Positions 28,127 through 33,838 of a stretch of DNA of 64,000 bases are shown here, in pieces. The position numbers and the translations under genes were made by a program. The stretch comes from Parcubacteria group bacterium. Lineage in GTDB: Bacteria > Patescibacteriota > Minisyncoccia > Moranbacterales > UBA2206. Positions within the stretch are counted from its first letter, which is position 1. Each line of letters begins with the position of its first letter. The notes under the pieces are model-generated. The model was given only the letters and a program-made list of their open reading frames with translations, ran no database searches and was not told where the DNA came from. The DNA lies in assembly GCA_041675165.1 (NCBI GenBank), contig JBAYUI010000002.1:376-64375 (forward strand). The letters are read 5' to 3'.

Positions 28127-29080
28127 ATGGCACAAAACTATGGACTCGGGAGGGGATTATCTTCTCTTATCCCGCAAAAAAGCAAATCCGTTGATGAGGC
28201 GGGAGCAACGATAGACGGACCCAAAGAGGACTTCAACTATTTCGGAAACCGGCCGGCGGCCAAAGCGGTTGCGGAAGATGATATGCCGGTTGAGCAGACG
28301 ATTTCAACAGGCAAGGAATCCGTCCAAGAGATCAATGTTTCCGACATCGTTCCCAATCCTCAACAACCTAGGACAGAATTCAATGTGGAAAAATTGCAGG
28401 AGCTGGCGGATTCGATCAAGACTCATGGAATCATTCAACCTTTGATCGTTACGAAAAAAGACGTGGGGTTTGAGTTGATTGCGGGCGAAAGAAGATTGCA
28501 AGCCGCGAAATTAGCGGGTCTTGCGACCGTGCCTGTCATTTCGCGTGTGGCGGATGAGCAGAATAAACTGGAATTAGCCATTATTGAAAATGTGCAGCGG
28601 CATGATTTGAATGTGATTGAAGAGGCGGCTTCATACAAGAAGCTGGCGGAAGAATTTGGACTCAGCCAAGAAGCGGTGGCCCTCAAGATGGGGAAGAGTC
28701 GGAGCGCAGTGGCGAACAAGATGCGCTTGCTCACTTTGCCGATCGAAATCCAAAAGGCGCTTATCGCGGGAAAGATAACCGAAGGGCATGCCAAATTGCT
28801 TCTGGCCATTCCTAATCCTGAAAAACAGCGGGCTTTTTATGAAATGATTTTGAAAGACAAGCTCACTGTCCGTCAGACGGAGAGCCGGACCAATGAAATT
28901 TCCGTGCGCACGCACAAAAGAAAAGTGTCGATCGATCCTGAAGTGAAAAGCTTGGAAGATAATTTTTCAGCCATTCTCGGCACCAAGGTCAAAATCAAAA
29001 AAGCCGGCGGCGGCGGTCGGATCATCATTGAATATTATTCCCAAGAAGAATTGGATGGGATTTTGGGGAAGATCAAGTAG
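28127..29080 (+). CDS. parB: Chromosome partitioning protein ParB/Spo0J
   Basis: N-terminal GLGRGLSSLIP, ParB box IIQPLIV...LIAGERRLQAAKLAGL, HTH. The ATG at 28127 is preferred over the 28112 start in the ORF track. Confidence 0.93.
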   Translation: MAQNYGLGRGLSSLIPQKSKSVDEAGATIDGPKEDFNYFGNRPAAKAVAEDDMPVEQTISTGKESVQEINVSDIVPNPQQPRTEFNVEKLQELADSIKTHGIIQPLIVTKKDVGFELIAGERRLQAAKLAGLATVPVISRVADEQNKLELAIIENVQRHDLNVIEEAASYKKLAEEFGLSQEAVALKMGKSRSAVANKMRLLTLPIEIQKALIAGKITEGHAKLLLAIPNPEKQRAFYEMILKDKLTVRQTESRTNEISVRTHKRKVSIDPEVKSLEDNFSAILGTKVKIKKAGGGGRIIIEYYSQEELDGILGKIK

Positions 29081-29267
29081 ATTACGAACTACGAAATGAA
29101 CGAAATACGAAAAAGTCTTCATTCTAGGCGGAGTCTCCTTTTTGAGGCCGTAGCCTTGGAAGCAGAAATGCGGTATTAGACACTGGGTGTCTAGCGCTAC
29201 TTAATCCTTCGCCTCGAGACACCCAGTGTCTGAGGGGTGCCGTCTTTCTTATGGATACTCTTGCATT

Positions 29268-29294
29268 AAAATGCCTTAAATCAGGCATTTTTTC
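29268..29294 (+). terminator. Rho-independent terminator ending a structured region downstream of parB
   Basis: aatgcct-taaatc-aggcatt then tttttcg. Confidence 0.6.
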
Positions 29295-29528
29295 GACAAG
29301 TCCTGGACAAAAAGTTGATTTGGGTGTATAATACACAGTTAGTATAAATTGTCCCTTAAAAACCCAATTTCGCGCTTTGCCACAGCAGAAAGAGTTTTTC
29401 TGAGAAGAATTTTTTCTGCTGTGGCGAAACCGTGGTGGTTAGCTTGACAGCGAACATTAAATTGATAAGTCTGTGACTCTGATTATTTAAATTGGAGCGA
29501 GGGACAAATCAGGAATGGAGGCAATATC

Positions 29529-30227
29529 ATGGCAAAGAGCAAAAAGCAGGTAGAAGCTATTTCTTCAGGAATGGGAGTTTTCGTAACAATTATTTCTGGA
29601 CTAGTTGAACTTGTGAAAAGTTTCGGTGGTTCAATAGAAGATTTATATTATCTGGGAACCCCCGAAGGCAGACAAAAGCTGGAAGCTGTCGCACGCGTCA
29701 TTGTTGAGAAGGCGAAGGAGGAAAAGTTGAAACCAAAATCTATCGAACGCTTTCGCATCATCAATGAAACGACTATCATGGTCAACCTTGATGCCCCTCT
29801 CATTTTGCCATTTAATGGAGCAGAGATTGAGTTTCAGATCGGCAGCGGCTGGGTGAAAGTTGAGAAACGGACGGATGGCCTGTATGTGGATGGCTGCAAA
29901 GTTATTCTGCATTTGGTCGAACGCCAAAAAGGCGGAAAAGTCATTAAGGGATATGAGCTTCGAGAAGAACTGTCGGGAAAGCGCGTGCTTCACCCGAACA
30001 TTATGGACGCTCTTTTTGAAAATCAATACATGATTCCCGCTGACTGGAAGAAGGATGAAAGTGGGAATATTCGATTTATCTTTTTCTGGGCAGTAATCTT
30101 TCGCCGCGCCGTTGGTAAGCTCTATGTCCGCTGTTTCTACTTCAGCGATGGTGAGTGGTTTCGGGGCTTCCGCTGGCTCGGCGACGACTGGGGCTCCTTC
30201 AGCCCCGCGGCTTTGCTCGCAAGTTAG
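29529..30227 (+). CDS. Hypothetical protein, immediately upstream of the DGR
   Basis: 232-aa ORF, no family recognised. By position it would be the DGR target, but no VR was found. Confidence 0.5.
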   Translation: MAKSKKQVEAISSGMGVFVTIISGLVELVKSFGGSIEDLYYLGTPEGRQKLEAVARVIVEKAKEEKLKPKSIERFRIINETTIMVNLDAPLILPFNGAEIEFQIGSGWVKVEKRTDGLYVDGCKVILHLVERQKGGKVIKGYELREELSGKRVLHPNIMDALFENQYMIPADWKKDESGNIRFIFFWAVIFRRAVGKLYVRCFYFSDGEWFRGFRWLGDDWGSFSPAALLAS

Positions 30228-30301
30228 AACTCAGTGCTAAGTTACTCGGATCTAGCCCTTGGAAACTTAGTCCTAAAAATTTTGAAAATGAGGTGATGAA
30301 C

Positions 30302-30345
30302 AAAAGCCTTTCGAAAATTATTTCGAAAGGCTTTTAAATTTTTGT
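30302..30345 (+). terminator. Hairpin terminator
   Basis: aaagcctttcgaaa-attatt-tcgaaaggcttt then taaattttt. Confidence 0.5.
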
Positions 30346-30567
30346 GCTACAATAAAGTTGGTAGTAGGGAAGCATGCGGGCGATTACGGTTTCCCGCTTC
30401 CGAATCCAGTATCCATACACTCCGGAATATCCACGATTACGGTTTTGGATAGTGTGAGGTATGCAGAAACTTCAAAAAAATGAAGATACTTGGTGCGAAA
30501 TGCCAGGGCATTTAAGATGTCGAATGAGATACAGCTCGGAGAGTAGTCGATGAGCAGTGGTAAAGAA

Positions 30568-30710
30568 GGTATTCCGTACAATTCCGATGGCGATCCAAAC
30601 CTGCTCAACGCGAATCGTAACGATGATGGTCGACGGCTGAATACGACCTATGACAATCCTGACAACAAGTGGAATCGCGACAATGGGTTTGCGTTCGTCG
30701 CCTCGCAACT
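30568..30710 (+). repeat. Putative DGR template repeat (TR)
   Basis: Non-coding stretch whose + frame reads YNSDGDPNLLNANRNDDGRRLNTTYDNPDNKWNRDNGFAFVAS. Asn (AAY) codon-rich and ends in the ...NGF-x-F-V motif typical of C-type-lectin VR/TR pairs. Followed by a hairpin ctctcccgac...gggagag. Confidence 0.6.
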
Positions 30711-30714
30711 CTTT

Positions 30715-31020
30715 TCATTTCTCTCCCGACATTTGTTTGGGAGAGTTTTTCTTTTGAAGACTGCCGTTCCAGCCGCCCAAATCTTTGCCGATCGAGTTCA
30801 ATTTTTCCGAAAGAGTAATGTACTTTTTATCATCCAATGATTTGGTTTCCCAAAGAATATGCAAAAATATTTTCAGCACGTCTGATTTGCGAATGGCCAA
30901 CCTGACATAGGGAATTTTTTCCTCCGGTTTTAGGAAAGCGGCAATGGCGATTGATTCAATGATTTCCGTAAAATATTTATCCACTTTTTGCCCGAGGGTA
31001 TATCTATGTGTGGTGGGCAA
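30715..31020 (-). CDS. avd: DGR accessory variability determinant (Avd), a four-helix-bundle protein of the 23S rRNA-IVS family
   Basis: 101 aa. C-terminus SIGKDLGGWNGSLQKK resembles the Avd EVGRILGSWI end. Divergent from the adjacent RT. Confidence 0.65.
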   Translation of the reverse strand: MPTTHRYTLGQKVDKYFTEIIESIAIAAFLKPEEKIPYVRLAIRKSDVLKIFLHILWETKSLDDKKYITLSEKLNSIGKDLGGWNGSLQKKNSPKQMSGEK

Positions 31021-31185
31021 AACTCGGTAATACTCATACCACAGAAGATAAAGACTTTTTATTTTCTCAAATACCGCCGGCAGCTGGGGGGGGGGATTTA
31101 AAAGTTGAACTATTATTCACCCCGTTAGAAAACTGTTTGCTGAAAGTATTTTCTTTTTTATAATGCATAAATTTATAATTTACCA

Positions 31186-32229
31186 ATGATATTTAAAGAT
31201 ATGATTTCTAACGGGGTAAAAATTCAATTGAGTCATAGTTTTGAAAAAATAATTAGTGTTGAAAATTTACTCGAAGCTTGGAAAGAATTTGCGAGAGGCA
31301 AAAAAGACAGAAAAGATGTGCAGGCATTTTCCATGCGATTGATGGATAACATTTTTATACTGCATGAAGAACTTTCTAATCATACCTATAAACACGGCGG
31401 GTATCAAGCGTTCAAGATCAATGATCCCAAACCCAGAGATATTCATAAAGCCAGCGTGAGAGACCGATTGGTGCATCACGCCATTTACAGAGCTCTGTAT
31501 CCGTTTTTCGACAAAACTTTTATCGCAGATTCATACTCTTGCCGGAATGATAAAGGTACACACAAAGCCATTGATAAATTCCGCAGCTATTTCCCCAAAG
31601 TCAGCCAGAATAATACCCGGACTTGCTGGATTCTGAAATGTGACATCCGTAAATTTTTTGCCAATATTGATCATCAAATTTTACTCAACATCTTGGCTGA
31701 ATACATTCCGGATAAAAATATCATTAGTCTCTTGGAAAATATCATTGAAAGTTTCCACGCTGGCTTACCCTTAGGCAATCTCACTTCGCAATTGTTCGTG
31801 AATATCTATATGAACAGGTTTGACCAGTTTGTGAAGCACAAACTAAAAGCTAAATATTATATCCGTTATGCGGATGACTTTGTTTTCTTGTCTGAAAGTA
31901 AAAAGTATTTGGAAGAAATTATTTTAGTCACCAGAGAATTTTTAAAAGAAAAATTGAAACTGGAAATGCATCCAGATAAGGTTTCCATTCAAACGCTATC
32001 ATCCGGCGTAGATTTTCTGGGGATGGTTAACTTTTTTGATTATCGAATACTCAGAACAAATACAAAGAGAAGAATACTGAAAAAACTAGCCCTGAAACAG
32101 AAAATGTGTCAGGAGGGATTGGTTTCCAAGGAATCACTTGAGCAAAGCGTGCAATCATATTTAGGAGTGTTGAGGCATTGTGAAGGGTATTGGGTGGCGA
32201 GAGAGATAGAAAGGATGATATGCGGTTGA
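31186..32229 (+). CDS. Diversity-generating retroelement reverse transcriptase
   Basis: RT motifs PRDIHKASVRDRLVHHAI, ILKCDIRKFFANIDH, LPLGNLTSQLFVNIY (the DGR-specific GxxxSQ) and YIRYADDFVF (YxDD). Confidence 0.9.
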   Translation: MIFKDMISNGVKIQLSHSFEKIISVENLLEAWKEFARGKKDRKDVQAFSMRLMDNIFILHEELSNHTYKHGGYQAFKINDPKPRDIHKASVRDRLVHHAIYRALYPFFDKTFIADSYSCRNDKGTHKAIDKFRSYFPKVSQNNTRTCWILKCDIRKFFANIDHQILLNILAEYIPDKNIISLLENIIESFHAGLPLGNLTSQLFVNIYMNRFDQFVKHKLKAKYYIRYADDFVFLSESKKYLEEIILVTREFLKEKLKLEMHPDKVSIQTLSSGVDFLGMVNFFDYRILRTNTKRRILKKLALKQKMCQEGLVSKESLEQSVQSYLGVLRHCEGYWVAREIERMICG

Positions 32230-32359
32230 TATCAATATTGGGAAGACAGCGGAGTCCTCTTTTTTCACTCGCTTTCGCTCGTTCAAAAAGAGAGACTCCG
32301 CCGAGGAGAATGATATTGAAAATTCATTGATTATTGAAAATTGATCATTGAATATTCTC

Positions 32360-33838
32360 TCAGATCATCCCTTCTCTTTTCATGAACTTCCGGATGTGGG
32401 CTTTGGCGTTGGAAGTCTTGACGAAGCGCAGCCAGTCGCGGCTGGGGTTTTTGTGATCTTTGGAAGTGAGGATCTCAATGATTTCTCCGTTTTGAACTTT
32501 GTAATCCAAAGTGACGATGTGGCCGTTGACCTTGGCACCGACCGCGCGGTCACCGATTTCGCTGTGGACGCGGTAGGCAAAATCGATCGGAGTGGCTTCT
32601 TCGGGCAGATCGATGATGTCGCCCATCGGAGTGAAGGCAAAGATATGATTTTTGAAAAAATCGATCTTCAGGCTCTCCATAAATTCGTGGTCGTCTTTGC
32701 CCAATTCATTCTGCCATTCCCGAAGCTGTTTCACCCAGATCAATTCCTGATCGGGCACTTTGGTCTTCCTGCCGAAAAGGAGATCTTTGAGACTGCGCTT
32801 ATTTTCCGAATAGATCCAGTGCGCGGCAATTCCGAATTCCGCTTCGTCATCCATTTTTTTGGTGCGGATCTGGACTTCGAGGAATTTTCCTTCCGGTCCG
32901 AAAATCGTGGTGTGGATAGATTGATAACCATTGGGCTTGGGGAGCGAGATATAATCTTTGATGCGGCCGACCAGCGGGCGGTATTTTTTGTGAACGATGC
33001 CGAGGGTTTCATAACAGTTGACGATTTCCGGCACGATTATCCTCACTCCGACCAGATCATAAATCTTGGCGATATCCATATCGTGCCGTTTCAATTTTTG
33101 GAAAAGGCGATAGATGTGTTTGGATCGTCCGAAAATGTCCACGAACCGGATGCCCTCTCGGCCCAGTTCTTTTTTCAGTTCAGCCACGACTTTTTTGATG
33201 TATTTCTTCCTTTTTTCCTGTTGCGCCGCCGACAGATTGGCCACGTAAGTATAATTTTCCGGATCAAGATAGCGGAAAGCCAAATCTTCCAAGCGCGCCT
33301 TAATATCTCCGATGCCGAGGCGGTTCGCGATGGGCGCATAAATTTCCAAAGTTTCACGGGCGATGCGTTCTTGCTTTTCCGGCGGCAGGCTTTCTAAAGT
33401 TTCCATATTATGCAAACGGTCGGCCAATTTGATGAGCACTACTCGGATATCGGCGGCCATCGCCAAAAACATCTTCCTAAGATTCTCCAGATAGTTTTCC
33501 TCTTTAGTGCCGCGCAGCTTTATCTTTCCCAACTTGGTAACGCCGTCCACCAATGTGGCGATCTCTTTGCCGAATTTTTTTTCGATCTCTTCCAAAGTGA
33601 CGGCTGTGTCTTCGGGCACATCATGCAGCAGTCCGGCCGTAATCGTTCTGGCACCGAGCCCGATCCTCGCCAAATTCAAGGCCGTATGCAACGGATGTTG
33701 GATATAGTCTTCGCCAGATTTCCTTTTCTGGGCGGTGTGCGCGCCCAAAGCCAATTCATAAGCGCTTCTGATCATTGCTTCATTCTTGGCGCTCATCTTC
33801 AGTTTTATATTTTTGATTACTTCTTCAATAGTGACCAT
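32360..33838 (-). CDS. rel: Bifunctional (p)ppGpp synthetase/hydrolase, RelA/SpoT family (short form)
   Basis: HD domain (LLHDVPEDT), synthetase domain (YISLPKPNGYQSIHTT), TGS domain. 492 aa. Confidence 0.9.
   Translation of the reverse strand: MVTIEEVIKNIKLKMSAKNEAMIRSAYELALGAHTAQKRKSGEDYIQHPLHTALNLARIGLGARTITAGLLHDVPEDTAVTLEEIEKKFGKEIATLVDGVTKLGKIKLRGTKEENYLENLRKMFLAMAADIRVVLIKLADRLHNMETLESLPPEKQERIARETLEIYAPIANRLGIGDIKARLEDLAFRYLDPENYTYVANLSAAQQEKRKKYIKKVVAELKKELGREGIRFVDIFGRSKHIYRLFQKLKRHDMDIAKIYDLVGVRIIVPEIVNCYETLGIVHKKYRPLVGRIKDYISLPKPNGYQSIHTTIFGPEGKFLEVQIRTKKMDDEAEFGIAAHWIYSENKRSLKDLLFGRKTKVPDQELIWVKQLREWQNELGKDDHEFMESLKIDFFKNHIFAFTPMGDIIDLPEEATPIDFAYRVHSEIGDRAVGAKVNGHIVTLDYKVQNGEIIEILTSKDHKNPSRDWLRFVKTSNAKAHIRKFMKREGMI

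Follow-up and report, generated by a model that had tools for sequence, protein, structure and literature searches.

The locus analysed here raises the question of what a diversity-generating retroelement (DGR) diversifies when the gene standing in its target position does not match its own template. It lies in a 64,000-nucleotide (nt) stretch of DNA from a Parcubacteria group bacterium (contig JBAYUI010000002.1; the whole stretch is referred to below as the window), in which a target gene, a template repeat (TR), an accessory variability determinant gene (avd) and a reverse transcriptase (RT) gene are found between positions 29302 and 32229. An earlier note on this DNA had called a DGR with no variable repeat (VR) nearby. 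Our analysis suggests that the locus is most probably a mosaic DGR of the Candidate Phyla Radiation (CPR), the intact core of which has been uncoupled from an adjacent target that belongs to another TR class.

The RT gene (31186-32229, plus strand) is full length and encodes a protein of 347 amino acids (aa) which matches Pfam RVT_1 at 2.6e-25 and carries the motifs LGNLTSQ at aa 196-202 (31771-31791) and YADD at aa 228-231. Its best match among solved structures is a 328-aa reverse transcriptase, 8ub7_A (5.9e-42), which we take to be the RT (bRT) of the Bordetella phage BPP-1 DGR, while group II intron RTs are matched at 2.7e-20. Homologues number in the thousands at 60-84% identity, nearly all of them from metagenome-assembled genomes (MAGs) of Parcubacteria, Moranbacteria and other Patescibacteria; they include RTs of 60-84% identity adjoining verified TR/VR pairs, and the RT of a sister DGR in locus L082 aligns with that of the window without a gap at 84% aa identity.

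The TR (30580-30708, plus strand) reads in frame as ..NSDGDPNLLNANRNDDGRRLNTTYDNPDNKWNRDNGFAFVASQ, with 10 AAY codons among 45, and belongs to the class here called type B, the motif of which is ..GFAFVASQ. Its identity to the TRs of five related loci with cognate VRs (L027, L019, L030, L045 and L036) is 83-85%. The peptide that it encodes groups with the TRs of L045, L036, L019, L071, L030 and L027, and the type-B targets of these six loci end in ..LWWIVAMHEPIKDSDGxPxLLxAxRxxxGxxLxxxxxxPDxxWxRxxGFAFVASQ. The 3' boundary is common to the whole clade, in that TRs run from ..CG(A/C)AA into CTCTYTTYATTTCTC and VRs from ..CGCAA into GT, and the window TR likewise ends in CGCAA followed by CTC.

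On the opposite strand, between TR and RT, lies avd (30715-31083, minus strand, approximately 122 aa when read from a conserved CTG). Its 101-aa open reading frame (ORF) at 30715-31020 matches Pfam bAvd at 3e-7, under the gathering score; the frame remains open up to 31113, and the form extended upstream matches NCBIfam DivGenRetAVD at 8.8e-14 over profile positions 2-102 of 104, under the curated cut-off. The gene is collinear with the avd of relatives, of which the homologue in L082 carries PF22296. The core shows no sign of decay, with a full-length RT, a collinear avd and a TR that has kept its frame, its Asn codons and its boundary motif. By homology, RT, Avd and TR form a module of the Patescibacteria DGR clade, and the cassette is of the DGR type common in the tiny CPR (Patescibacteria) bacteria.

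These results uphold the earlier note in its DGR call for RT, Avd and TR (RVT_1 with LGNLTSQ and YADD, the DivGenRetAVD match and the Asn-codon-rich TR), as well as in its reading of a 347-aa RT with LGNLTSQ replacing QGxxxSP and of a minus-strand 101-aa Avd-like ORF, the latter through two profile matches that both stay under their cut-offs. Its TR of 30568-30710 was rightly seen as rich in Asn codons and placed 12 nt too early: homology to the TRs and VRs of relatives begins at approximately 30580, because 30568-30579 constitutes the 3' strand of the closing 12-bp helix of a leader RNA (described below), which abuts the TR. The cassette had furthermore been described as possibly inverted, which does not apply, a minus-strand avd between TR and RT being the standard architecture of the CPR clade.

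What, then, is the gene upstream of the TR? This 232-aa ORF (29529-30227, plus strand) ends 353 nt before the TR and had been noted to lack the TR skeleton, and indeed the VR in which the gene ends (30085-30224, plus strand) agrees with the local TR at 21 of 97 non-A sites, a random level (22%). The skeleton in question is 30580-30708 with N in place of every A (part of it reads ..CCTGNCNNCNNGTGGNNTCGCGNCNNTGGGTTTGCGTTCGTCGCCTCGC). The ORF is nevertheless not an unrelated gene, as it occupies the target position and carries a VR of another class. Its C-terminus, ..GNIRFIFFWAVIFRRAVGKLYVRCFYFSDGEWFRGFRWLGDDWGSFSPAALLAS, aligns with the targets of L037, L004, L005, L039 and L058, the TRs of which encode ..YVRYFYWNDSQWNRNYNWLDNDWNDNNPAALLAT and constitute type A (motif WLxxxW..PAALLAS). 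Against the type-A TR of L037, the window VR has 24 mismatches and 12 matches at A sites as opposed to 28 mismatches and 77 matches at non-A sites (Fisher p = 4e-5). A database search recovered 80 homologues of the target (alignment A1), which combine an invariant framework with hypervariable positions where type-A TRs have Asn codons. By these comparisons, the ORF at 29529-30227 is a genuine DGR variable protein, diversified from a type-A template and not from the local TR. The earlier statement that no VR lies nearby therefore holds for a cognate VR and fails for a VR as such, one of type A being adjacent.

The significance of this mismatch becomes apparent from the layout of related loci. 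TR/VR pairs were retrieved with a BLAST-based finder in which a repeat was kept if at least 75% of the mismatches fell on A of one copy, and a cognate pair adjoining the RT was detected at 66 of 80 related genome loci and at all three of the closest relatives; most of the 14 pairless loci are cut by a contig end, two others among them (L073 and L078) show a pair when inspected by eye, and a further one, L075, has a TR below a gene without VR domain. (Clustering of the TRs by BLAST single linkage was dropped as too coarse.) The order is constant across the clade, being target with the VR at its 3' end, spacer, TR, avd on the minus strand and RT. The VRs of relatives start 384-588 nt upstream of the TR and show 0-6 non-A mismatches over 111-147 nt; the window VR, starting approximately 495 nt upstream of the TR start, conforms to this layout.

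A cognate VR was searched for in approximately 72 kb of contig and in 11.6 kb of one other contig, belonging to a genome of at least 770 genes. Ungapped A-tolerant scans in both orientations revealed none in the window or in the other 8 kb of the contig (L085): the best 45-nt stretch in the contig has at least 10 mismatches among 27 non-A sites, and the best 90-nt stretch has 29 among 61. The contig holds no other paralogue of the target, and type-B target proteins match nothing there except the TR; nor was a cognate VR found in the stretches examined of the other two contigs with DGRs in this sample, L082 and L083. Thus, within the sequence searched, the window TR has no partner that differs from it almost only at TR adenines. 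A protein search with the TR-derived type-B C-terminal peptide gave 47 matches, almost all of which are spurious ORFs over the TRs of many genomes, a 96-aa ORF of the window itself among them; none of the few VR fragments is compatible with ..GRRL..TTY..KW... When JGI metagenomes were scanned for exact copies of an A-free 22-mer from the 3' end of the TR, only L088 was retrieved, the VR of which differs from the window TR by 11 A and 2 non-A mismatches in its 3' half and by 12 non-A mismatches in its 5' half; with 14 non-A mismatches among 93 sites overall, it is related and not cognate.

Comparison of the cassette segment by segment indicates how the mismatch may have arisen. The promoter, 5' untranslated region (UTR) hairpin and first 59 codons of the target (29302-29706, plus strand) are nearest to the type-D locus L023 (86%), with L083 and L082 at 85-87%, while the C-terminal domain and VR (29707-30227, plus strand) are nearest to the type-A locus L037 (76% and 74%). 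The spacer (30228-30567, plus strand) is nearest to L019 (79%) and L074 (84.5%), and the TR segment (30568-30710, plus strand) to the type-B loci L027, L019, L030 and L045 (83-85%). The avd segment (30711-31056, minus strand) is nearest to L074 (87% identity in DNA) and L019 (83%), and the RT segment (31186-32229, plus strand) to the type C/D loci L082 (84%), L084 (82%), and L083 and L023 (77%). The target itself is, to judge from its alignments, modular: its first 60-65 residues or so resemble type-D targets and the remainder is a type-A C-terminal domain, and the proteins P0244-P0246 have only the N-terminal ~60-65 residues in common with it and are of type D from there on. Alignment of the window with the type-B locus L019 runs without a break over 30216-31152, starting 11 nt before the target stop codon, which places the junction between type A and type B at the 3' edge of the VR. 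Across the clade, the nearest RT neighbour has the same TR motif class at only 13 of 35 classifiable loci; module exchange thus looks frequent, and an exchange that separates a TR from its VR is plausibly an accident of this process.

We therefore favour a scenario in which recombination among related DGR cassettes, within conserved inter-module segments, would have joined a type-B TR module to a target with a type-A C-terminal domain and VR, with the junction at or just past the 3' end of the VR, near 30216. By homology with relatives that have A-biased TR/VR pairs, and by the BPP-1 model, an RNA comprising leader, TR and hairpin would be transcribed from a -10-like box, bound by RT and Avd, and copied into adenine-mutagenised complementary DNA (cDNA), as evidently happens in the relatives. 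Homing needs homology between TR and VR, and the two share only the 7-nt CTCGCAA; therefore the adjacent VR cannot receive the TR cDNA. It would be frozen at its last diversified sequence, the core would presumably still be enzymatically active, and the locus would amount to a working engine disconnected from its cis target. Two fates can be envisaged, namely that the TR serves a remote type-B VR, which we regard as possible if somewhat doubtful, or that the event is recent and the cassette is heading to loss, of which later stages would be exemplified by L075, where the VR domain is gone, and by L088, where TR, avd and RT are replaced.

In L075 (8702-9701), an intact TR is preceded by a gene that stops before the VR domain, making it another uncoupled cassette. 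In L088 (JGI Ga0210057_1073995, 257-955 and 1005-1200), a type-B target with a diversified VR and the conserved spacer are retained, and genes which from their translated ORFs read as toxin-antitoxin-like replace TR, avd and RT, leaving an orphaned target, the reverse of the situation in the window. As at the window locus, the cassettes are broken between modules, in or beside the conserved VR-TR spacer; L075 and L088 have each lost a module, whereas the window has kept all modules and combined mismatched ones.

Other explanations of the mismatch deserve consideration. One of them, which extends the uncoupled mosaic and does not contradict it, is that the type-B TR diversifies a remote type-B target in trans, the adjacent type-A gene being a bystander or served by another TR. 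The remote and the orphan options of the earlier note accordingly both stay alive, the inverted one having fallen. Remote DGR targets are known in Legionella, Treponema and cyanobacteria, where the remote VRs match the TR; the window TR would resemble these if a type-B VR existed elsewhere, and the locus differs from them in that the only target-like gene in 72 kb has a VR of another class in canonical cis position. A remote target would agree with a core that is intact throughout (46 of 48 leader pairs, hairpin, 10 AAY codons in frame, full-length RT and avd), with the large size of the type-B target family and with the presence of at least one other active DGR in the genome. It sits poorly, however, with the lack of a cognate VR in the 72 kb and in the parts of L082 and L083 examined, with the adjacency of the VR in 66 of 66 pairs detected in the clade (approximately three loci have an extra repeat within 10 kb), with the JGI 22-mer scan, which yielded only the non-cognate L088 VR, and with the incompatibility of the VR fragments from the protein search, so that we hold it to be possible and rather unlikely. 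Adjacency-based surveys are known to miss remote targets (Roux 2021, PMC8144416). Less likely again is a reciprocal exchange of which the mismatch shows one product: two DGR loci of this genome would have crossed over in the conserved VR-TR spacer, and each would since template the target of the other in trans. If true, the two loci would form a DGR network, with targets re-assigned by recombination and no functional loss, and the mismatch would mark a chromosomal rearrangement.

An artefact of assembly, in which the conserved spacer served to join the type-A target of one locus or strain to the TR-avd-RT of another, could be imagined in a sample that holds at least three related DGR loci sharing segments of 75-88% identity. 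Such segments are, however, too divergent for joins at k = 141, an unbranched 1688-nt contig of the Logan assembly SRR6484325 covers target, spacer, TR and avd (29415-31102) at 100% identity and crosses the junction, and the separate 72,439-nt NCBI/JGI contig encodes an identical target and RT, which renders a chimera highly improbable. (The Logan assembly was made with a different assembler and presumably with a much shorter k-mer.) The upstream VR might alternatively be the true partner of the TR, having drifted away from it in an old and decayed DGR, as its position is right and short peptide stretches (EWFRGF versus KWNRDN) look as if derived by A-to-N changes. Yet when the TR and the 3' end of the ORF are aligned with gaps and with tolerance at A, the score of 68 falls within the null range (43 +/- 10, maximum 79), the non-A identity stands at 22%, the VR and the whole C-terminal domain fall in a different, well-populated family with its own TR class, and RT, avd and TR are without decay; we give this drift next to no credence. 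Equally negligible in our view is heterologous homing, whereby type-B cDNA would integrate at a type-A VR via the 3' motif ..CTCGCAA of the clade and so replace the VR class. All TR/VR classes of the clade do end alike (VR ..CGCAAGT; TR ..CG(A/C)AACTC), and CTCGCAA is shared by the TR and VR of the window, but there is no homology upstream of these 7 nt that would resolve the 5' end, the type-A block reaches approximately 460 nt upstream of the junction and thus far exceeds the TR, and the VR is unchanged across assemblies.

Several considerations weigh against the uncoupled mosaic that we prefer. The TR classes (A, B, C and D) were assigned from motifs and alignments and not by a formal phylogeny. 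The segment relatives are only 74-87% identical, too distant to identify the parents or the age of a recombination. The search extended over the above ~72 kb and 11.6 kb of the genome, which leaves room for a remote cognate VR, and the intact TR, leader, hairpin, avd and RT fit continued use as well as they fit a recent event. Finally, the VR is seen to be static in two or three consensus assemblies, which possibly share reads.

This last evidence derives from a comparison of two DGRs in one genome, since the locus tags assign the window target (WC022_00520) and the L082 target (contig k141_305012; WC022_03850) to the same MAG. In the sister DGR of L082, TR and VR (the latter at L082 3624-3747) form a cognate pair of type C, with 11 of 12 mismatches at A. 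When the ENA assembly is compared with that of NCBI/JGI, the target of this DGR is found to differ at 10 residues, all of them in the VR and at codons that contain adenine in the TR (nine Asn and one Ile), which is direct evidence, at the level of assembled sequence, of ongoing diversification. The window target, by comparison, is represented by one identical sequence in NCBI, JGI, Logan and ENA and is the sole member of its 90% cluster, and no adenine-specific variation of its VR is present among these consensus assemblies. As far as consensus assemblies go, this pattern fits an active sister DGR next to a frozen window VR, and a MAG with one apparently active and one uncoupled DGR may offer an internal control for DGR activity in metagenomic reads.

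The locus would in this respect be a natural snapshot of the evolution and death of CPR DGR cassettes, the modules of which (target N-terminus, VR domain, leader-TR-avd and RT) appear to be exchanged at conserved junctions, with separation of TR and VR uncoupling the system. DGR surveys that require a TR/VR pair near the RT would log the window as an RT without a target, thereby hiding the VR of another class in cis. No new mechanism is involved; the locus offers a clear case from nature of a DGR uncoupled by module shuffling, together with a leader RNA, and is relevant mainly to DGR and CPR specialists.

The leader RNA occupies the region between the target and the TR. The target gene is followed by an intrinsic-terminator-like hairpin with a 15-bp stem and a T run (30302-30335, plus strand), and conservation across TR classes extends over the approximately 230 nt from this terminator to the TR. 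The leader has at its 5' edge a conserved extended -10-like box (TGCTACAAT; TGnTAnAAT) at 30345-30353 on the plus strand (columns 23-31 of alignment A3), which is probably the start of the TR RNA transcription unit. RNAalifold applied to 63 loci predicts a structured RNA at 30376-30579 (plus strand), consisting of a helix P1 (30376-30384/30389-30397), a helix P2 (30415-30438/30441-30462) and a helix P3 (30493-30504/30568-30579) that encloses two hairpins. Among the 48 predicted pairs, 41 show compensatory changes; 95.5% of cells are paired, against 71.0 +/- 0.5% in shuffled alignments (0/500) and 40-52% in slid registers, and the covariation score is 0.776 versus 0.292. In the window, 46 of the 48 pairs are intact. 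The leader has no Rfam match at E <= 1, and is an undescribed RNA strongly supported by covariation. It may be the counterpart in this clade of the RNA scaffold around the BPP-1 TR, and provides a separate lead on the assembly of the RT-Avd-RNA complex in these very abundant elements.

A second conserved structure follows the TR, namely a hairpin with a 9-bp stem and then a T run (30721-30745, plus strand), which sits within the 3' end of the antisense avd coding region. Covariation across 68 loci gives 87.7% paired cells versus 77.2% in shuffled alignments, with slid registers at 37-72%, and 63 double-sided cells versus 22 +/- 7.6 (0/500). Handa et al. (bioRxiv 10.1101/2023.10.23.563531) report Avd-binding stem-loops just 3' of the TR in 207 of 278 DGRs, among them DGRs of the CPR, and the position and stem length of the hairpin fit this published class; it may act both as an Avd-binding stem-loop and as the terminator of the TR RNA. 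A 96-aa ORF over the TR (30550-30840, plus strand) is found in public databases as the predicted protein P0121, and dozens of comparable Asn-rich pseudo-proteins of other CPR genomes are deposited there too; all are artefacts of gene calling over TRs.

With respect to known systems, the window shares with CPR DGRs the RT (60-84% identity), the gene order, the leader RNA, the post-TR hairpin and the TR 3' boundary motif. It departs from them in the class mismatch between TR and adjacent VR, which agree in the 66 related loci and the three closest relatives, and in its mixed affinities, the nearest relative being a different one for the RT, for avd, for the TR and for either half of the target. 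The DGRs of the CPR are reportedly the subject of work by Paul et al. in 2017. With the prototype BPP-1 DGR (mtd-avd-TR-brt), the window has in common the [I/L]GxxxSQ motif of the RT, an Avd homologue and a stem-loop of approximately 9 bp just 3' of the TR. Unlike the prototype, it has its avd on the opposite strand and 3' of the TR, has approximately 200 nt of structured leader before the TR, and yielded no cognate VR. None of the RT motifs in Rfam, including the BPP-1 spacer motif RT-10 (Weinberg 2017, PMC5737381), matches the window. CPR DGRs correspond to DGR clade 2 (Roux et al. 2021, PMC8144416) and to the 'CPR set' (Wu et al. 2018, PMC5758913).

The start of avd is unusual in that avd genes of this clade, including those of relatives with working TR/VR pairs, have no canonical start codon ahead of helix 1, as a consequence of which gene callers truncate or miss the gene. 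In the window the first canonical start is a TTG at 31020, yielding the 101-aa form. A conserved Leu codon, which is CTG at 31083-31081 in the window and TTG in L028, L002 and L021, is likely the start, which would lead to the protein of approximately 122 aa. This putative start follows a conserved Pro-Pro-Pro stretch (seen as a poly-G run at approximately 31086-31095 on the plus strand).

The target gene is preceded by a promoter-like site, TGGACA-17-TATAAT (11/12), at 29304-29332 (plus strand), which lies at the start of the block shared with other DGR loci. Between this site and the gene is a 5' UTR hairpin with 26-nt arms (29376-29428, plus strand), which is near-perfect and is kept upstream of the targets in L082, L083, L004 and L039; L082 and L083 match it also in inverted orientation, and L004 and L039 align across it. 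The hairpin may be a regulatory element of DGR targets. An AlphaFold model of the target has a pLDDT of 90.3 (approximately 97 for residues 80-230), and the N-terminal module of approximately 60-65 residues, common to targets of another class, is helical. A fold search of the model in PDB and BFVD gave no significant match, with C-type lectins appearing only at E ~3 in two libraries, and type-B targets have no sequence match in Pfam or PDB. The C-type-lectin signature read into the TR by the earlier note is hence not substantiated for either class, and the modelled target may present its VR on an undescribed fold or be a very divergent C-type lectin.

Two other identities were considered for the RT and rejected. 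A retron is disfavoured by a score of 59 bits against a cut-off of 235 with the retron NCBIfam model, by the lack of any retron RNA family in Rfam at E <= 1 over 28900-32400, and by the TR/VR pairs of relatives. A group II intron RT is disfavoured by a score of 151.6 bits with TIGR04416 against a cut-off of 300; the Rfam scan of the same interval revealed no group II intron RNA, and the protein measures only 347 aa. That scan returned just two chance microRNA matches, and there is no tRNA nearby. The start codon of the RT gene at 31186 is flanked by a 16-nt inverted repeat (31116-31131 and 31205-31220, 94% complementary) which could fold and occlude translation initiation.

The window represents most of a 72,391-nt metagenome contig, k141_1793999 (ENA ERZ27247358), and the same sequence is available from NCBI as the 72,439-nt NCBI/JGI contig of a Parcubacteria-group MAG (locus-tag prefix WC022; proteins MFA7319073.1 and MFA7319075.1). 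The cassette is flanked by chromosomal housekeeping genes, with parA and parB upstream and relA/spoT, topA and dprA downstream. Just outside both of its ends is found the 11-mer GGCGGAGTCTC, at 29127-29137 on the plus strand and at 32292-32302 on the minus strand, these being its only two copies in the window; the copies are inverted and extend into 20-nt arms that are 85% complementary. The same motif occurs directly after the RT in L083 and L029. By a rough estimate, the probability of a chance occurrence is ~0.01, and the pair could represent terminator halves or a trace of cassette mobility.

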